Positions 947 through 59,875 of a stretch of DNA of 64,000 nt are shown here, one piece after another. The notes beneath the pieces were generated by a model, which was given only the letters and a program-made list of their open reading frames with translations, did not search any database and had not been told where the DNA came from. A program made the position numbers and the translations under genes. The stretch covers positions 7,484 to 71,483 of the forward strand of contig JBAZYD010000008.1 of assembly GCA_041659465.1 (NCBI GenBank), written 5' to 3'. This DNA is from Candidatus Micrarchaeia archaeon. GTDB lineage: Archaea > Micrarchaeota > Micrarchaeia > Anstonellales > Anstonellaceae. Numbering within the stretch: the stretch's first letter is position 1; each line of letters begins with the position of its first letter.

Positions 947-950
947 CTTG

Positions 951-2072
951 ATGCAGATACTACGCCAGACAAAGCTCGAGGCGCTTGAGAAGGCGCGTTC
1001 ATTGGGACCGGAGGCCACCATTGCCCTGATTGGGAAGCGCGGGCTCGAGGGCAGGGGAGGCGCGGCCTATCCCACCGCGAAGAAGTGGAAAACGTGCAGG
1101 GATGCGCCATCCGACGAGCGGTTCGTGGTTTGCAATGCCGACGAGGGCGAGCCAGGCACCTTCAAGGACAAGCTCATCATTCGGCACAATGCGGAGACCA
1201 TGATAGAGGGCATTCTGATTGCGGCGTATGCCGTTGGCGCCAAGAGATGCTTCATCTACCTGCGGGGGGAATACGATTATCTCCGCCCGCGCCTCCAGGA
1301 GCAGATTGACGACGTGCTTGCGCGCGCGAAGACGGAAGGCGTTACCATCGAGATTGTAAGGGGTGCAGGAGCATACATCTGCGGCGAGGCGACCGCGCTC
1401 CTCCAGTCCATAATGGGCTTTAGGGGAAATGCGATGTGCAAGCCGCCCAACCCCACCACGCACGGGCTTTGGGGAAAGCCCACTGTCATCAACAATGTGG
1501 AAACGCTGACGTGCGCGGCGCAGGCGGTCCTTTTCGACGACTGGGATTCCACGCTCCGCCTGTTCTCGATTTCAGGCAATGTCAAGAACCCCGGCGTGTA
1601 CGAGTTCCCGCTTGGCGTGAAGATGTCCACAATCATAGATGTCGCGCGCCCTGAGAAAAAGCTGAAGGCGATGTCGTTCGGCTGCTTCGGCGGGATAATG
1701 CCCGTGGACGAGAACATGTCCGTGACGCCGGAGACCATCAACATGGAAAAGTGCCAGCACGGCGCGTACAGCATCATTTTCATCGACGAGACGAACAATG
1801 TTGTGGATGTCGCGTATTCCATTGCGAAATTCTACACCTACGAGTCCTGCGGCAAGTGCACGCCCTGCAGGGAGGGCACCATGCGCATGCTCAACCTGCT
1901 CAAGAAGGTGCGCTCGGGCAAGGCCGTGAAAAAGGATTTGGAGCTGATGCGCGAGCTTGCTGTGCACATACAGGACACCGCTTTATGCGGCCTTGGGCAG
2001 ACGTGCGGGAACCACATACTGACAAGCCTTGAGCATTTCCCGAAGGATTACGATGCATTCATGAAAAGATAA
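951..2072 (+). CDS. hydB: NuoF/HydB-like flavoprotein subunit (minimal core)
   Basis: Motifs GRGGAAYPTAKKW, CNADEGEPGTFKD and ESCGKCTPCREGT (N3-type 4Fe-4S). The track start at 948 is TTG; ATG lies at 951. No extra ferredoxin domains are present. Confidence 0.9.
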   Translation: MQILRQTKLEALEKARSLGPEATIALIGKRGLEGRGGAAYPTAKKWKTCRDAPSDERFVVCNADEGEPGTFKDKLIIRHNAETMIEGILIAAYAVGAKRCFIYLRGEYDYLRPRLQEQIDDVLARAKTEGVTIEIVRGAGAYICGEATALLQSIMGFRGNAMCKPPNPTTHGLWGKPTVINNVETLTCAAQAVLFDDWDSTLRLFSISGNVKNPGVYEFPLGVKMSTIIDVARPEKKLKAMSFGCFGGIMPVDENMSVTPETINMEKCQHGAYSIIFIDETNNVVDVAYSIAKFYTYESCGKCTPCREGTMRMLNLLKKVRSGKAVKKDLELMRELAVHIQDTALCGLGQTCGNHILTSLEHFPKDYDAFMKR

Positions 2073-2087
2073 ATACCGGGTCATCAG

Positions 2088-3752
2088 ATGAAAATAAAGC
2101 TGAACAACAACGAAATCGAGGCCGCGGAGGGCAAGTCGCTCCTTGACATCTGCCGCGAGAACGGCATCAATGTGCCAACATTGTGCTACCACGCCAGCAT
2201 GGCGCCGGAGGCGCGCTGCAGGGTGTGCCTGGTGGAAATGGACGGCAAGCTCGTCACATCATGCTCCACAAGGCCGCGAGAGGGCGCATCAATCGTCACC
2301 AATTCGGAGCGCGTGATGAAGGCAAGAAGGCTGAACATGGAGCTCATGGTGCCCGACCCGTCGTGCAAGCGCGAGGACGACTACGAGGTCTGCCAGACCT
2401 ACAAGGAGGTCGGGATGGACAATGCGCGCTTCTCGCAGATAAAGGACTACATACCCGACCTGGGCGCCGCGGTGATACGCGACAACAACAAGTGCATAAA
2501 CTGCGGCAGGTGCGTCAAAGTGTGCGCGGAGATACAGGGGGTCTTCGCGATAGACTTTGCGAGCCGCGCGCACAACGAGCATGTCACCCCGTACTGGGAG
2601 AACCATTTGGCGGACGTTGCCTGCATACGGTGCGGCCAGTGCATACTCAACTGCCCTGTCGGCGCGATTTCTGAAAGGTCCCATATTGAAGAAGTTGTGG
2701 CTGCGCTTGACGACAAGGACAGGCACGTGGTGGTGCAGGTTGCGCCTTCCATCCGGGCGGCCTTAGGCGAGCTTTTCGGCATGCCCGCGGGCGCGCTTGT
2801 GACAGGCAAGACTGTTGCCGCGCTCCGCCGCTGCGGCTTTGCAAAGGTGTTCGACGTGGACTTGGGCGCGGACATCACCATCATGGAGGAGGCGTCCGAG
2901 CTTCTGAGGCGGGTGGAAAACAACGGCAAGCTGCCCATGATTACCACCTGCTGCCCGGGCTGGATACTGATGATGGAATTCTTCTACCATGACCTGATAG
3001 GGAACATGTCCACCTGCCGCTCACCGCACGAGATGCTCGGCATGCTCATCAAGACGTATTATGCGAAAAAGGCGGGCATCAGCCCGAAGAAAATAACCGT
3101 TGTTTCCATCATGCCCTGCACTGCCAAGAAGTTCGAGTCCACGCGGCCAGAGCTTGAAAGCGGGGTGGACTATGTGCTCACCACGCGTGAGCTAGGAAGG
3201 CTCATCAAGATGAAAAAAATCGACTTCGCATCGCTTCCCGACGAGGAATTCGACCCTGCGCTCGGGATTTCGACAGGCGCTGGCGTGATATTCGGGGCGA
3301 CAGGGGGCGTGATGGAGGCTGCGCTGCGCACCGCGCACTTCCTGGCAACAGGGGCGGAGCTTGAGAAGGTTGAGATTGCTGAGATTCGCGGCATGAAAGG
3401 CATGAAGGAAGGCAAGATAGTGCTCAATGGCAAGGAGATACTGTTTGCCTGCGCGCACGGAGGGGCGAACGCGCGCAAGCTCATGGAGATTAAGGACAAG
3501 TACCACTTCATCGAGATAATGGCATGCCCGGGCGGCTGCATCGGGGGCGGCGGGCAGCCCATCTACCGCGACCCCGAGGTGCTGAGGAAGAGGACTGAAG
3601 CCATCTATTCCGCGGACCGCGCAAGCAAATTGCGCCGCTCGCACGAAAACCCGGTGGTGCAGCAGATTTACCGCGAAATGCTCGGCGCGCCGCTTTCCGA
3701 AGAGGCAGAGAGGCTGCTGCACACGCACTATGTAAAGAGGGACAGGTTTTGA
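2088..3752 (+). CDS. hydA: [FeFe]-hydrogenase catalytic subunit
   Basis: H-cluster motifs TTCCPGW, MPCTAKKFE and EIMACPGGCIGGGGQP are all present. The N-terminus has a 2Fe-2S fold (CYHASMAPEARCRVC) and two 4Fe-4S motifs (CINCGRCVKVC, CIRCGQCILNCP). Confidence 0.92.
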   Translation: MKIKLNNNEIEAAEGKSLLDICRENGINVPTLCYHASMAPEARCRVCLVEMDGKLVTSCSTRPREGASIVTNSERVMKARRLNMELMVPDPSCKREDDYEVCQTYKEVGMDNARFSQIKDYIPDLGAAVIRDNNKCINCGRCVKVCAEIQGVFAIDFASRAHNEHVTPYWENHLADVACIRCGQCILNCPVGAISERSHIEEVVAALDDKDRHVVVQVAPSIRAALGELFGMPAGALVTGKTVAALRRCGFAKVFDVDLGADITIMEEASELLRRVENNGKLPMITTCCPGWILMMEFFYHDLIGNMSTCRSPHEMLGMLIKTYYAKKAGISPKKITVVSIMPCTAKKFESTRPELESGVDYVLTTRELGRLIKMKKIDFASLPDEEFDPALGISTGAGVIFGATGGVMEAALRTAHFLATGAELEKVEIAEIRGMKGMKEGKIVLNGKEILFACAHGGANARKLMEIKDKYHFIEIMACPGGCIGGGGQPIYRDPEVLRKRTEAIYSADRASKLRRSHENPVVQQIYREMLGAPLSEEAERLLHTHYVKRDRF

Positions 3753-4669: not shown

Positions 4670-4790
4670 GATGGAAAGTCGGAGGCAAGCCTAATAAAAG
4701 ATGGGGCGGGCGCAAAAGCGCGCGGCGGATAAATGGCGGGCTGCAAAGCCGGGCGTCAGCCTAATAAAATATTGGCATGGAAATCGGAGC

Positions 4791-5459
4791 ATGGGAAATA
4801 TTGCGCGCCCGCTTGCATTCATTATGCTTGCAGCAGCCATCCTGCTTTCCCCCGGGTGCGCGCAAGTCGGCGCGCCCGCCCGGAATGAGACCGCAAGCTC
4901 GGCGAGGTTCATCCTGCCAGCGTCGGATGTTTCATATTATGCGCGCTACACCGTGGAGGAAGGGGGGCCGGCGACAAAGGAGATCTGGCGCGCGAAGGGC
5001 ATGATGAGGATTGACCTGTCTTCGCAGGGGATGCGCGCGCTTTCATTCTTCTTCGTGGATTCGCACGCCTACTCGTGCTCCTACGCGTCATCCAAGCCTG
5101 CGTGCTATGATGTGAGCGGCGCGCTTTCGCAGGGGGATGCGCAGAGGCTGGTGCCGTCGGAAAATGATGCAAAGGGCGGCACGCGGCTGGAAAGCGTCAA
5201 AATCGGCAGCGCAAATGGCAACTGCTACGGGGTTCCAATAGGGATGATGGGCATGCGCAAGCTCTGCTTTGCCCCGCAGGGCGTGGTGGCGTATGATTCG
5301 TACAATGTGAGCAAGGCGCTGCTGCACACCGAATACCTGACGGACATTGAGTACTACGAGGATGGGCTGGGGCCTGATGCCTCGGTGTTCGCGCTCCCCG
5401 CAACGCCTATCCCCGCGCCAGCCGTGCCTGAGCCGGCTGCACCTGATTTTGAAGAATGA
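4791..5459 (+). CDS. predicted lipoprotein, function unknown
   Basis: The internal ATG at 4791 gives MGNIARPLAFIMLAAAILLSPGC (signal peptide plus lipobox-like Cys). A second copy of cctaataaaa (4760-4769) lies about 26 nt upstream. Confidence 0.55.
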   Translation: MGNIARPLAFIMLAAAILLSPGCAQVGAPARNETASSARFILPASDVSYYARYTVEEGGPATKEIWRAKGMMRIDLSSQGMRALSFFFVDSHAYSCSYASSKPACYDVSGALSQGDAQRLVPSENDAKGGTRLESVKIGSANGNCYGVPIGMMGMRKLCFAPQGVVAYDSYNVSKALLHTEYLTDIEYYEDGLGPDASVFALPATPIPAPAVPEPAAPDFEE

Positions 5460-5495
5460 GAAATGCTTACATCTTTTGCCGATGTAAAAAGTCAA

Positions 5496-5609
5496 TGGGC
5501 CCGCGAGGAATCGAACCCCGAATCTTCGCTGTGTAAGAGCGACGTCTTAACCATTGTCGGCTTGCCGGCAAGTTCTTGCCTGCAGGCAAGAGCATTCGAC
5601 TACGGGCCC
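5496..5609 (-). tRNA. tRNA-Val(UAC) with a 41-nt intron in the D-arm
   Basis: Manual fold gives acceptor GGGCCCG/CGGGCCC+A, anticodon arm TCGCT-CTTACAC-AGCGA, variable loop AGATT and T arm CGGGG-TTCGATT-CCTCG. The D arm GTCG-AATGGTTA-AGAC only forms after removing 41 nt (about 5556-5596). The mature tRNA is 73 nt. Confidence 0.8.
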
Positions 5610-5682
5610 AAAGCTTGCGGAGTACCTTCATCGCCAAAAGCCTTAAATACCGCGCATGAGAATTGCCCTCTGGTGATTGATA

Positions 5683-6366
5683 ATGGCGTATGAATACCTG
5701 CTGAACCAGCTCCAAGCAAGTTCTGCCAATTTCATTGGGAACCTGCTTTCAGGCGTGTTTGCGTTTTGTATATTGGCCGCAGTCATGCTAATCGGCATCT
5801 GGGTGGCAAACCTGCTCGGGAAGGTCCTCAATGAGTTCTTCCGCAGGGTGAAGCTCGAGAGCTTCCTGGAAGGCCATGGCGTGCACGATGCCTTCCTCGG
5901 GTTCACGCTTTCCGGGGTCGCGATAATAATGCTCAAGCTGTACGTAGTCGTGGCATTCCTGGGAATCGCCGCCGACCTGGTACAGATGCCCATGCTGTTC
6001 ATGATTGCGGCGCAGGCAATCAATTACCTCCCCTCGCTCGCGCAGGGGCTGGTGATACTGCTCGCGGCGCTGATGGCGGCGGACTACCTCACGGACAGGA
6101 TAAAGGAGAGCAAGAAGCTCCCGTTTGCAAACAGCATCGGGCTCCTTGTGACGCTCTTCATCGCCTACAACGCGCTGGTGATTGCGATGCCCCTCCTGCT
6201 CCCGTCGGCAGACCCGTCCCTGCTTGTCTGGTCGTTCCTGGTGCTGCTCTCGGCTTTCGCAATCGCGCTTGGCTTTGGCGCAGCGATTGCAATCGGGCTT
6301 GGCATGAAGGACACGGTTGCGGAGATTGCCAAGAAGAACAAGGACAAGTTCTCCAAGCTGCTGTAA
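5683..6366 (+). CDS. polytopic membrane protein (TM-helix-repeat, mechanosensitive-channel-like N-region)
   Basis: About 227 aa with 5-6 hydrophobic helices and a charged C-terminal tail. The track start at 5677 is TTG; ATG lies at 5683. Confidence 0.55.
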   Translation: MAYEYLLNQLQASSANFIGNLLSGVFAFCILAAVMLIGIWVANLLGKVLNEFFRRVKLESFLEGHGVHDAFLGFTLSGVAIIMLKLYVVVAFLGIAADLVQMPMLFMIAAQAINYLPSLAQGLVILLAALMAADYLTDRIKESKKLPFANSIGLLVTLFIAYNALVIAMPLLLPSADPSLLVWSFLVLLSAFAIALGFGAAIAIGLGMKDTVAEIAKKNKDKFSKLL

Positions 6367-6373
6367 GGCGGCG

Positions 6374-6401
6374 CTTTTCTCTTTTTTTATTTTTCTTTTT
6401 T
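6374..6401 (+). terminator. T-rich tract between convergent genes
   Basis: The tract cttttctctttttttatttttctttttt follows the stop at 6366. Archaeal termination typically uses oligo-T. Confidence 0.45.
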
Positions 6402-6417
6402 GGGATGAGCGGAAGCT

Positions 6418-7017
6418 TTAGAATTCTATCCTGTCCCCCTCGCGCACCGCGCCTTTCCTCAGCACCTTCATCCTGATGAGGTCTATTACCGTGCTCCCCT
6501 GCGCGTACTTGCACCTGCCCCCGTCAACCGCAAGGTCGCAGCCCGAGAGGATTTCCTGTGCCACGCCTGAAAGCTCGGCTGCATCGCCCTCCCCTGAAAA
6601 ATTCGCGCTTGTCGTGACTATGGGGACGCCCGCGGCCTTGCCCACTGCGCGCATGAATGCATGCTCTGGCACCCGCACGCCGGCCTCCAAAGTTTCCGAG
6701 ACAGGCAGGCGCTGCTTTAGCGGCAGGATGAACGTATAGGGGCCTGGCAGAAGCTCGTGCAGGATTTTTTCCTGGGCGGAAGATGGCTTGCAGAAGCGCA
6801 GGAGCATGGCAAAATCAGGGACGAGGATGGAGAGGGGCTTTCCAGCATCCCGGCGCTTGAGCGCGCGCAGCCTCTTCACAGCGGCTGCATTGGTGGCGTC
6901 GCAGCCCATGCCATAGAGCGTGTCGGTCGGATAAAGGACAATGCCGCCTGCCGTTATTGCGGCAAGGGCAGCTTCAAAGGCGGTGTCGTGGTCCGAAAGA
7001 GGGATTGTGAGAGCCAT
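6418..7017 (-). CDS. tsaC: L-threonylcarbamoyladenylate synthase (YrdC/Sua5 domain)
   Basis: Motifs YPTDTLYGMGCDATN, KPLSILV and TTSANFSG. Confidence 0.85.
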   Translation of the reverse strand: MALTIPLSDHDTAFEAALAAITAGGIVLYPTDTLYGMGCDATNAAAVKRLRALKRRDAGKPLSILVPDFAMLLRFCKPSSAQEKILHELLPGPYTFILPLKQRLPVSETLEAGVRVPEHAFMRAVGKAAGVPIVTTSANFSGEGDAAELSGVAQEILSGCDLAVDGGRCKYAQGSTVIDLIRMKVLRKGAVREGDRIEF

Positions 7018-7077
7018 GGAATCACGATGCCGTGCGTGCAGCGCCGCAATCGGGCGCAGGGGATGCGAATGCCGCAG

Positions 7078-7845
7078 TTAGACTTTCTTCTTCCCTGCCT
7101 CGCGGATTGCGCGCACGAACTCGGCGACCTTTTTCCTCGTGTCCCCGCCTTTTTCAAGCGCGGTGCCGACCTGCACGGCGCCTGCGCCGGCAGCTATCAC
7201 TGCAGCTGCCTCCTGCGGCGTGCGTATGCCGCCTGCGGCGATGTAAGGCACGGATATCACGCGCGAAACCGCAGCCACCATCTCAAGGGGCATATGCCCG
7301 TCCTTTGGGTTGGAGCCGCAGTCCGTGAGCACAAAGCGGCTGCCGGACATCTCTGCCGAAAGGGCGAATGCAGCCGCGATTTGCGGCTTGTCGCGCGGCA
7401 CAAGGTTCACGTCGCCTACAAAGCCCACCGTGCCGCCTGGCGAAATCACTATGTAGCCGACCGGAAGCGCCTCAAGGCCAATCTTGCGCACGGACGGGGC
7501 TGCGAGCATCTGCGCCTGGGAAATCCAGTACGGGTTGCGGCTGTTGAGAAGCGACATGAAATATACAGCGTCCGCGTATTTTGTCACGGTTGAGATGTTG
7601 CCCGGGAACAGCACCACTGGCACGCTAGCTTGTTCCTTTATGCTTTTGGTGACAGTGTCCAAAAGCTCGCCCTGCGCGCCCATGCTGCCGCCGATGAGTA
7701 TGATGTCCGCGCCTCCCTCGCCTGCCGCCGTGCCTGCGGCTATCGCCTCGGATGGCGACTTGTAGTCCACAGGGTCGATGAGCGCAAAGAGCAGCCCGCC
7801 CTTTTTCGCAATGTTGTCCTTGATGTATGTTTCGACTTTGCCCAT
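7078..7845 (-). CDS. geranylgeranylglyceryl phosphate synthase (PcrB family)
   Basis: LFALIDP, ILIGGS, FPGN, LLNSRNPYWI and GGIRTPQEA are present. Start chosen at MGKVETYIKDN (7845). An alternative ATG at 7881 overlaps the upstream stop as TGATG. Confidence 0.85.
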   Translation of the reverse strand: MGKVETYIKDNIAKKGGLLFALIDPVDYKSPSEAIAAGTAAGEGGADIILIGGSMGAQGELLDTVTKSIKEQASVPVVLFPGNISTVTKYADAVYFMSLLNSRNPYWISQAQMLAAPSVRKIGLEALPVGYIVISPGGTVGFVGDVNLVPRDKPQIAAAFALSAEMSGSRFVLTDCGSNPKDGHMPLEMVAAVSRVISVPYIAAGGIRTPQEAAAVIAAGAGAVQVGTALEKGGDTRKKVAEFVRAIREAGKKKV

Positions 7846-37752: not shown

Positions 37753-37849
37753 GGGCCCATAGCTCAGCTTGGTAGAGCAGTGGACTCTTATGCTCGCATG
37801 CGCGCGCAGAGCCATCCACGTGTCGTGGGTTCGAATCCCACTGGGCCCG
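37753..37849 (+). tRNA. tRNA-Lys(CUU) with 23-nt canonical (37/38) intron
   Basis: Acceptor GGGCCCA/TGGGCCC+G, D arm GCTC-AGCTTGGTA-GAGC, anticodon stem GTGGA/TCCAC and loop CTCTTA|intron 37791-37813|A. T arm GTGGG-TTCGAAT-CCCAC. The mature tRNA is 74 nt. Confidence 0.85.
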
Positions 37850-58095: not shown

Positions 58096-58695
58096 CTAGC
58101 CCAAAAATTCCTTCACGAACGCAGCGCATGCCTTCTCATTCATGCCATCAAGCATGATGGAGCGCACTCCCGCGCCCTCCCCCGCCTGCATGTCCTCCAG
58201 ATTGTCGCCGACAAAAACAGCCTTGTCCGCGCGCACACCGAGCCTAGCAAGCGCAAGCCTTATCATCGTCGGGTCAGGCTTGACAGGCGCGTCACCGCTT
58301 GTCATCACAGCCTCGAAATATTTCTCGATGCCGATTTGCCGAAGCACCGCGATTGCGCTTGATTTCCTGTTGCTTGCTGCGGCAAGCCGGTAGCGCGCGG
58401 CAAGCGCAGGCACTTGCGCGGCAAGCATGGACGGTTTTACAAGCGCCATATTTTCGTTCGTAAGCTCCCGCAGCCTGTCAAGCATTGCCGCAAGCTTCGC
58501 CCTGTCCGCGGAAAGCGATGGCGCCAGCGCAATGAGCACGGATTCCGCCGAATGTGCGGAGGACATCGAGTCGATGCGCGCATCAGGCACGTCAAAGCCG
58601 AATTCCCTCATGAGGCATTTCGTATTGTGAGAAATCGCCTCGCGCGAATCCGCAAGCACGCCGTCGATGTCGAAAATAATCGCCTTTATTGCCAT
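58096..58695 (-). CDS. HAD-superfamily phosphatase
   Basis: MAIKAIIFDIDGVLADS (motif I) and VFVGDNLEDMQAG (motif IV). Confidence 0.75.
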   Translation of the reverse strand: MAIKAIIFDIDGVLADSREAISHNTKCLMREFGFDVPDARIDSMSSAHSAESVLIALAPSLSADRAKLAAMLDRLRELTNENMALVKPSMLAAQVPALAARYRLAAASNRKSSAIAVLRQIGIEKYFEAVMTSGDAPVKPDPTMIRLALARLGVRADKAVFVGDNLEDMQAGEGAGVRSIMLDGMNEKACAAFVKEFLG

Positions 58696-59774
58696 AAAAT
58701 CTTCCGGTTTTTCTCGGTTTCCCCGTCCCTGCACAGCAACGCCACGCGCGATGGTGAATGAATGTCCACCAATTTATATCCCGTCATCTTGGCAAGCTTT
58801 CCTGCAATGGCCTCGATTTCCTCCATCTTCAGCATGGACCCAAGCGCCAATCCCCGCGCAGGCTCGCGCGCGCCGCCCACAAACACCATGCTCTTCACTT
58901 CGACATAATGCGGCTTGGCAAGCTTAATCTGCGCGGCATAGCCCTCCAAGTCGCAGTCATTCACCCCGCGCGCAATTGTCATCCTAAGCACGGTCCTCGT
59001 TTTCTTCCCAATTTCCGGCATCATATCTAGCGTGCGCAGGTATTTTTTCCATAAGCCTGGCGTGGATGGGCGTATGAAGCGCCGGTAAACATCCTCGTTC
59101 GGCGCAACCATGGAGACATAGAACTGCGTTGGCAGCACTTTCCATTTTGCAACAGCTTCCGGCAATGTCCCGTTCGTGACGACAAACGTGGTCATGCCGC
59201 GCGCATGGAAATCAGCAAGCAGCCCGTCCATCTTAGGGTACATCGTGGGCTCCCCGGTAAGCGACAGGGCAACATGTTTTGGGGAAAGGGCTTCAACGTA
59301 TAGGGATTTTTTCACTTCCGGATTGCCTCCAAAGCCAGCCACCAGCGTTTTCTGAGCTTTCACCAGCCCGTCGGCAATGTCTTCCGGCTCCCCCCACGAA
59401 AAGCCTTTCACATCGCCGTATTTGTCCTCAGATTGGAGCTGCGGCTCCAATACAGACAAATTTCTCCGAAATTTGTCTCTTTCCGGCATCATCCTCCAGC
59501 AGAAGACGCACGCGTGGTTGCAGAACTGCAAAACTGGCGTGCACTGCAGGCAGCGGTGCGAGGAAATCCCATAGAACTTTGATTTGTAGCATTCGCCGCG
59601 CCCTTTGAGCGACTCGCCAGCCCAATGGCAAAGCTTCGCGGCTGAGTGCTCGCCCACCACGGCATACTTCTGGTTCACAAGCTTCGCGAGCATCCTGTCC
59701 GGCAGGCTGGCGTTCCTGCGCCTAAGCGCGTCATAGTGCTTCCCCTTTCCCAGCTTCCTCCTCTGCCTTGCCAT
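58686..59774 (-). CDS. taw1: tRNA 4-demethylwyosine synthase (Taw1/Tyw1, radical SAM)
   Basis: CNHACVFCWR radical-SAM CxxxCxxC plus upstream Cys residues. TATA gttttaaacc (59797-59806) lies upstream of the ATG at 59774. Confidence 0.85.
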   Translation of the reverse strand: MARQRRKLGKGKHYDALRRRNASLPDRMLAKLVNQKYAVVGEHSAAKLCHWAGESLKGRGECYKSKFYGISSHRCLQCTPVLQFCNHACVFCWRMMPERDKFRRNLSVLEPQLQSEDKYGDVKGFSWGEPEDIADGLVKAQKTLVAGFGGNPEVKKSLYVEALSPKHVALSLTGEPTMYPKMDGLLADFHARGMTTFVVTNGTLPEAVAKWKVLPTQFYVSMVAPNEDVYRRFIRPSTPGLWKKYLRTLDMMPEIGKKTRTVLRMTIARGVNDCDLEGYAAQIKLAKPHYVEVKSMVFVGGAREPARGLALGSMLKMEEIEAIAGKLAKMTGYKLVDIHSPSRVALLCRDGETEKNRKILWQ

Positions 59775-59875
59775 GTTCCCATTCCCCCTCACTCACGTTT
59801 TAAACCTTGTGGGGCAATACACGAACAGCAGTCTTCCGGGGATATTTTTTTCAATGCCCCCAAGAGCGTGAAAAA

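Follow-up and report, generated by a model that had tools for sequence, protein, structure and literature searches.

The 64-kb stretch of DNA analysed here (the window) carries on its minus strand a complete tRNA-Val(UAC) gene of 114 nt, which reads GGGCCCGUAGUCGAA-[UGCUCUUGCCUGCAGGCAAGAACUUGCCGGCAAGCCGACAA]-UGGUUAAGACGUCGCUCUUACACAGCGAAGAUUCGGGGUUCGAUUCCUCGCGGGCCCA (exon-[intron]-exon; Table 1). Its 7-bp acceptor stem, anticodon arm (loop CUUACAC, anticodon UAC), 5-nt variable loop and T arm are intact, the discriminator base is A73 and CCA is not encoded. The D arm is interrupted and forms only once 41 nt are taken out. A duplicated AATG (AAUG in the RNA) allows these 41 nt to be deleted in five registers, and each gives the same product of 73 nt, which ARAGORN recognizes as tRNA-Val(tac) with a score of 121.2 and which reaches 69.7 bits with the Rfam tRNA model RF00005, the value of the intron-less orthologue, versus 27.6 bits for the unspliced sequence. 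A split or permuted tRNA gene is excluded because both exons are contiguous and collinear within the 114 nt.

Default searches pass over this gene. Run with default settings on the window, ARAGORN reports a tRNA-Met alone, while Rfam at its gathering threshold returns the tRNA-Met and an intron-bearing tRNA-Lys; the tRNA-Val is called by neither. A permissive Rfam scan of the locus recovers it at the 27.6 bits given above, under the 29-bit threshold, through a match that borrows intron bases as a false acceptor strand. The tRNA-Lys(CUU) gene holds a 23-nt intron at the canonical 37/38 position with a strict 3-4-3 hBHBh′ motif and a CUCU/AGAG central helix; it is missed by default ARAGORN and detected by Rfam and by ARAGORN -i.

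A sequence-only reading of this DNA had proposed a tRNA-Val(UAC) with a 41-nt intron in the D arm and with normal acceptor stem, anticodon arm, variable loop and T arm, all of which holds, the spliced product being identical at 73 of 73 positions to intron-less genes in seven loci. It had also placed the splice point somewhere between positions 13 and 18 within the duplicated AATG; the five equivalent registers are real, but the geometry of the splice motif narrows them to a junction at 15/16. Its palindromic arms exist as well, although they are not three copies of one half-site but four arms (two CTTGCC and two GGCAAG) in two palindromic units. The alternative hairpins that it envisaged are permitted by the inner CTTGCC/GGCAAG arms but matter less than the intron-intron helix h′, where the covariation lies. 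ARAGORN, which it had put forward as a check, is silent by default and yields a forced tRNA-Cys(gca) with -i; only on the spliced product does it return tRNA-Val.

The gene is flanked upstream by a conserved block, GCGCGGUAUUUAAGGCUUUUGG, which contains the TATA-like UAUUUAAGG and is kept in the syntenic loci L003, L006, L007, L011, L014, L015 and L021. The block is probably an archaeal promoter, possibly shared with a divergent ORF that starts near 5685, and a T5 run past the tRNA 3′ end could plausibly serve as an archaeal oligo-T terminator.

The window is ordinary archaeal chromosome, encoding Sua5, PcrB, a HerA-like ATPase, GatD/GatE, an H+-pyrophosphatase and a DNA topoisomerase (Pfam Topoisom_bac plus Toprim). 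A gene for a NuoF-like flavoprotein, followed by one for an [FeFe]-hydrogenase large subunit with a fused small-subunit domain, forms a pair that is syntenic with tRNA-Val in the Micrarchaeota relatives L003, L006 and L007, where a NuoE-like gene lies upstream. ORFs of 1254, 775, 514 and 433 aa had no Pfam match at the thresholds used. Locus L003 also holds, just past a 227-aa ORF, a group II intron-type reverse transcriptase (6154-7398; RVT_1 and GIIM) that is absent from the window.

Table 1 Coordinates and strands of the features discussed in the text
Feature	Position	Strand	Remarks
tRNA-Val(UAC) gene, complete, 114 nt	5496..5609	-	15-nt 5′ exon, 41-nt intron, 58-nt 3′ exon
5′ exon, tRNA positions 1-15	5595..5609	-	GGGCCCGUAGUCGAA; register from BHB geometry and from intron-less orthologues identical to the spliced product
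Intron, 41 nt, between positions 15 and 16	5554..5594	-	UGCUCUUGCCUGCAGGCAAGAACUUGCCGGCAAGCCGACAA
3′ exon, tRNA positions 16-73	5496..5553	-	UGGUUAAGAC...GGGCCCA; anticodon UAC at 5533-5535
Central helix H, exon strand	5597..5600	-	G10 U11 C12 G13; 5′ D-stem strand in the mature tRNA; constrained fold
Central helix H, intron strand	5556..5559	-	CGAC; mimics the 3′ D-stem strand
5′ splice-site bulge	5594..5596	-	A14 A15 U (intron 1), cut predicted 3′ of A15; left free in the constrained MFE fold
3′ splice-site triplet	5553..5555	-	A A U16, predicted cut before U16; unpaired D-loop bases follow
Intron body forming helix h′	5560..5593	-	Outermost pairs GCU (5591-5593) with AGC (5560-5562)
Conserved upstream block	5634..5655	-	GCGCGGUAUUUAAGGCUUUUGG; TATA-like UAUUUAAGG at 5641-5649, 32-40 nt upstream of the tRNA 5′ end
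T5 run	5486..5490	-	6-10 nt past the tRNA 3′ end; read from sequence
Gene adjoining tRNA-Val	4701-5459		Protein 100% identical to WC861_03710
EndA, three-unit epsilon-2 type, 401 aa	59876..61081	+	Pfam PF02778 (tRNA-intron endonuclease N-terminal domain) and PF01974 (two catalytic-fold stretches); PDB 4FZ2
Radical-SAM protein with wyosine-formation domain (Taw1/TYW1-like)	58686-59792	-	Divergent neighbour of EndA
tRNA-Lys(CUU)	37753-37849	+	23-nt intron at 37791-37813
NuoF-like flavoprotein	948-2072	+	
[FeFe]-hydrogenase large subunit	2088-3752	+	Fused small-subunit domain
ORF, 1254 aa	41691-45455	+	No Pfam match at thresholds used
ORF, 775 aa	50777-53104	-	No Pfam match at thresholds used
ORF, 514 aa	37870-39414	-	No Pfam match at thresholds used
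ORF, 433 aa	29936-31237	-	No Pfam match at thresholds used

Splice motif and endonuclease

We folded the precursor with the acceptor, anticodon and T arms enforced and took the minimum free energy (MFE) structure. In this constrained fold GUCG pairs with CGAC as a central 4-bp helix (H), both AAU triplets are free, which gives a 3-nt bulge on each strand, and the intron-intron helix h′ forms beside the 5′ splice bulge; removal of the insert leaves a canonical tRNA. The outer exon helix h of a strict hBHBh′ motif is absent, U8-A9 being unpaired with the GGUUAA that follows U16, which makes the bulge-helix-bulge (BHB) motif one of the relaxed HBh′ form. With helix h missing and the 3′ cut site lying beside single-stranded D-loop bases, cleavage would depend on relaxed specificity of the enzyme. 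A rival conformer in which the D stem is formed is almost isoenergetic with the BHB conformer (-45.0 versus -45.4 kcal/mol). The unconstrained MFE fold of the precursor is not a cloverleaf; tRNAs commonly defeat thermodynamic folding, and this fold was set aside on that ground.

The position of the cuts can be predicted from a known structure. In the crystal structure of EndA from ARMAN-2 in complex with RNA, the 2′-OH of the middle nucleotide in the bulge attacks the third nucleotide's phosphate, and the cut falls after the second bulge base (PMC12397907). Applied to the tRNA-Val precursor, this rule predicts one cut behind A15 and another in front of U16, with a loss of exactly 41 nt, and settles the AAUG ambiguity at 15/16. 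Only this register puts both cuts after base 2 of a 3-nt bulge flanking a 4-bp helix, and it fits all 18 intron variants found in relatives. Because the exon strand of H is the future 5′ strand of the D stem, the CGAC of the intron stands in for the 3′ D-stem strand (GAC).

An enzyme suited to such a motif appears to be encoded in the same window. The predicted EndA matches the ARMAN-2 enzyme (PDB 4FZ2) over its full length (E = 1.4e-125; query residues 2-401 against chain residues 2-387), its catalytic residues Y235/H250/K281 align with Y236/H251/K282 of ARMAN-2, and its loop GSYKAE aligns with GTYKVS (Y160/K161), conserving the Tyr-Lys pair of the ARMAN-specific loop. Mutagenesis of ARMAN-2 EndA found both Y236/H251/K282 and Y160/K161 to be needed for cleavage (PMC12397907), and the homodimeric enzyme is active on relaxed BHB substrates (PMC3239211). 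The structural match and the conserved catalytic and loop residues thus mark the window's EndA, by sequence and by analogy with ARMAN-2, as a broad-specificity epsilon-2 type that should be able to cut relaxed motifs. Its mechanically delimited ORF runs from a TTG at 59807 and would give 424 aa; homologues mostly have 385-410 aa, and those that are named come from Micrarchaeota, Micrarchaeia and Anstonellaceae. No RtcB ligase was found in the 64-kb window. The divergent neighbour of the EndA gene encodes the Taw1/TYW1-like protein, so that two tRNA-maturation genes adjoin.

The insertion site in relatives

For comparison we assembled tRNA-Val(UAC) genes from loci syntenic through the neighbouring gene, from a scan of species-representative genomes and from a scan of JGI metagenomes, using the anticodon-to-T-arm core of tRNA-Val as the pattern in both scans. 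The resulting set comprises 54 complete genes including the window's, and all named sources are Micrarchaeota. Slightly more than half (28/54) are intron-less, among them the seven loci mentioned above, and intron-less orthologues at the same syntenic position are likewise tRNA-Val. The remaining 26 genes bear an insert, in every case between GTCGAA and TGG, with 18 distinct introns of 31-182 nt. The identical 114-nt interrupted gene occurs in L003/L020, and its sources are independent NCBI and JGI assemblies; recurrence across independent assemblies, together with 18 inserts at one identical site, excludes chance.

The ends of these inserts covary. A gap-free alignment of 16 distinct junction constructs served to score the proposed pairs of H and h′ cell by cell. 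Standard pairs fill 93.2% of the cells versus 70.2% in shuffles, none of 500 of which reach the observed value, and sliding the 3′ partner by 1-3 columns lowers pairing to 32-52%. For h′, 90.2% of cells are paired across the 16 junctions, with double compensatory changes at 7/7 pairs. Helix H is paired in 98.4% of cells across the 16 variants and differs on the intron strand only (CGGC, UGAC or CGAU, with G-C/G-U and U-A/U-G pairs kept), as expected because its other strand is fixed exon. In 16 of 19 distinct precursors the central helix appears in the thermodynamic fold. The sequence-only reading had paired GTCG of the 5′ exon with CGAC of the intron as a relaxed bulge-helix-bulge, and had pointed to a broad-specificity endonuclease in the window; the constrained fold and this pairing bear out the former, and the full-length match to 4FZ2 the latter.

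Gene copy number was assessed with the same core pattern. Every one of the 14 species-representative genomes has a single match, and in seven of them the gene is of the interrupted form. As far as MAG completeness and an exact-match pattern allow, this argues against an intact back-up copy. No second tRNA-Val(UAC) was found in the 64-kb window, and a scan of viral_contigs for the tRNA core found none.

The 54 genes include alleles with zero, one or two introns, and the introns form three sequence groups at one site. That of the window is clearly related to the introns of L023, L053, L026, L016, L015 and L014 (z = 4-11 versus shuffles), with no detectable similarity (z ≤1.6) to either the GGAAGCC...GGCUUCC-CGAU-UA group (L030, L034) or the 126-182-nt group (L029, L022). 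Given a weak signal between the introns of L029 and L015 (z = 3.8), the long and short groups may conceivably be distantly linked. Rfam searches of the loci with 126-182-nt introns returned nothing beyond the tRNA itself.

The 41-nt intron of the window recurs in identical form in L003/L020, L038 and L060, where the flanking DNA is 72-86% identical to that of the window and the alignment breaks at the gene edges. A segment of 115 nt (5495-5609, tRNA plus intron) is 100% identical to L003, the flanks of which are 78-86% identical. Of the genomes sharing the intron (L003, L038, L060), two differ in the exons, the intron being at least as conserved as the tRNA. This sharing might reflect very strong constraint, or else the allele might have spread laterally in recent times. 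Elsewhere in the window, the palindrome of the intron has one match with one mismatch, which is at chance level, and across 61 loci its inner motif AACTTGCCRGCA was found inside tRNA-Val introns only, which leaves transposition unsupported within these 61 loci and their limited DNA.

Several relatives have more elaborate loci. In L046 (1196-1508) a two-intron allele of tRNA-Val(UAC) combines a 165-nt intron at 15/16 with a T-loop insertion of ~75 nt, the exons being intact. Additional 5′ and/or 3′ fragments of tRNA-Val lie beside the intact gene in ~20 loci (L003 4667-5376, L006 5928-6532, L011, L015, L021 and ~15 more); there are none in the window. Some of the fragments contain a second D-loop insert (near 20/21) or a ~50-nt T-loop insert, and compensatory differences between loci are seen in the hairpins of the fragment inserts. 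Several short contigs break off within the fragment region, which suggests repeat-induced assembly breaks. The fragments of L003, L006 and L011 were considered as a working split or nested tRNA and rejected: by eye, the outer junction cannot form a BHB, and D-stem bases are missing from several fragments. In L016, ~70-185 nt downstream of tRNA-Val, a second tRNA is recognizable by eye (anticodon loop CUCUGAA, possibly Gln-CUG) with an apparent T-loop insertion; it is uncalled by default ARAGORN and hints that non-canonical introns are common in these genomes.

In L039 (20-854) and L057 (450-1281), a copy of tRNA-Val(UAC) that starts at position 23 (51 nt, GACGTCGC...GGGCCCA) abuts an integrase gene of the archaeal phage type (PF16795, E about 1e-31). 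These truncated copies identify tRNA-Val(UAC) as an integration target in the clade with an att core of ~51 bp. The host side of the att sites carries an AsnC-family gene, as in L006. Integration at tRNA-Val would most simply account for the 3′ fragments. The intron site is upstream of the att core (positions 23-73), and integration therefore does not obviously explain the intron at 15/16.

A wider scenario, which we put forward tentatively and regard as rather doubtful at present, is that position 15/16 of tRNA-Val(UAC) is a recurrent intron-capture site in Micrarchaeota, where unrelated BHB introns may have been gained, swapped and lost repeatedly and where one 41-nt allele may have spread laterally between species that share a habitat. 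BHB-intron mobility might possibly be linked to integrase traffic at tRNA-Val, the att core of which begins downstream, at position 23. If true, the 15/16 capture site would offer a natural 'snapshot' of BHB-intron mobility.

Weighing the alternatives

We consider it highly probable (about 0.9) that the locus is a functional Micrarchaeota (DPANN) tRNA-Val(UAC) gene whose D loop holds one protein-spliced intron, at the non-canonical position 15/16. Transcription of the gene and the cleavage and ligation of its precursor are inferred. In the precursor, the intron end CGAC would pair with G10-G13 to form the 4-bp helix, flanked on its 5′ side by the bulge A14-A15-U and then the intron-intron helix, and on its 3′ side by A-A-U16 and then unpaired D-loop bases. 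The epsilon-2 EndA, encoded 54 kb away and presumably a homodimer like that of ARMAN-2, would cleave each triplet behind its second base, to yield exons of 15 nt (5′) and 58 nt (3′) and an intron of 41 nt. The exons would then be joined by an RtcB-type ligase, upon which the D stem could form and complete the 73-nt tRNA.

Among the alternatives, the one that survives best, though improbable, is a pseudogene, a tRNA-Val inactivated by a small palindromic insertion while another copy decodes. This would agree with the richness of the insert in palindromes, with the silence of default ARAGORN and of Rfam at gathering threshold, and with the standing of tRNA-Val as an integration hotspot in relatives that have many dead fragments nearby; but the exons are not degraded and match functional-looking orthologues at 73 of 73 positions, and the ends of the insert covary in a way that keeps the splice motif. 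In addition, 18 different inserts occupy exactly one site. Neither the window nor the other loci contain dispersed copies of the palindrome, the promoter block is conserved and the window contains no paralogue, while in the seven species-representative genomes with the interrupted form the core occurs once per genome.

It is more improbable still that the mature tRNA retains the 41 nt, as an additional hairpin arm within a larger D loop. The insert does fold into a hairpin of its own, and the D-stem conformer comes close in stability to the BHB conformer, yet the features that are conserved, the 4-bp helix and the AAU triplets, are exactly those of an EndA substrate, and a cognate EndA is present. 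Insert lengths of 0-182 nt among close relatives with identical exons are hard to reconcile with a structural role.

A tRNA-Cys(GCA) with a 28-nt anticodon-loop intron is what ARAGORN -i calls at 5495-5610 (tRNA-Cys(gca) i(32,28), score 101.6), a forced fit given that the program allows introns in the anticodon loop only, and we give it almost no credence: the model needs an 8-bp acceptor stem, a 2-bp D stem and a mismatched anticodon stem, its 21-nt 'variable arm' is the perfect anticodon arm of tRNA-Val, its score is below the 121.2 of the Val reading, and the syntenic intron-less orthologues are tRNA-Val. An assembly or binning artefact, for which nothing specific speaks beyond the origin of the window in a metagenome-assembled genome, is just as implausible in view of the identical 114-nt gene in independent NCBI and JGI assemblies, as is a self-splicing (group I/II) intron, since ribozyme introns are far longer than 41 nt and the Rfam intron families gave no match.

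Comparison with known systems

The functional, protein-spliced gene that we favour contains an intron of a kind already documented for this lineage together with its enzyme, at a site that the sequences compared here indicate to be unusually variable among relatives. Position 15/16 is absent from the lists of known non-canonical insertion sites in the reviews consulted here; D-loop positions are presumably among the non-canonical intron sites of larger surveys.

Default tRNA finders overlook the window's gene and every interrupted allele in the relatives, with the consequence that Micrarchaeota MAGs would wrongly appear to be without a tRNA for GUA codons. Such apparent losses bear on completeness and on auxotrophy or dependency arguments for DPANN archaea. 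The precursor would also be a natural D-arm HBh′ substrate for a structurally characterised epsilon-2 endonuclease, with the 3′ end of the intron as a D-stem decoy. The allele series at one site is of the kind that reviews have asked for on the gain and loss of BHB introns (PMC4033280), and the current understanding of the splicing system itself is unchanged.

Three known systems invite comparison. The tRNA-Thr of Caldiarchaeum (PMC3293823) resembles the tRNA-Val loci of the relatives in its population-level variation in intron number at a single tRNA locus, in tRNA fragments beside an intact gene and in a recombinase or integrating element; the likeness concerns the relatives' loci only, the window having a single clean gene. 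Lineages with an (alpha-beta)2 EndA (Fujishima et al. 2010; reviewed in PMC4090602 and PMC4033280) share with the window introns outside 37/38, including the D and T arms, HBh′ and hBH motifs, a broad-specificity endonuclease and signs of recent intron gain. Their enzyme, unlike the epsilon-2 type of the window, is a heterotetramer with a crenarchaeal loop, and whereas related introns occur in different tRNA genes there, different introns occur here at one tRNA site, with no spread to other genes found.

The closest system is that of ARMAN-2 (Candidatus Micrarchaeum acidiphilum), whose pre-tRNA-Cys(GCA) has a 13-nt intron at 59/60 (Fujishima et al. 2011, PMC3239211; Hirata et al. 2012, PMC3488258; PMC12397907). 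The window differs in tRNA, position and motif, with tRNA-Val, D-loop 15/16 and an HBh′ form that fully frames the 5′ site as against tRNA-Cys and hBH/BHL, and its host belongs to a neutral-habitat Micrarchaeia/Anstonellaceae-like lineage whereas ARMAN-2 comes from acid-mine settings. In vitro cleavage has been demonstrated for ARMAN-2 substrates, while the precursor of the window is a predicted substrate. Common to both are the phylum and a three-unit epsilon-2 EndA with its specificity loop; each has an intron at a non-canonical position, within a relaxed motif that lacks one outer helix, and the cleavage chemistry established for ARMAN-2 is the same as that predicted for the window.
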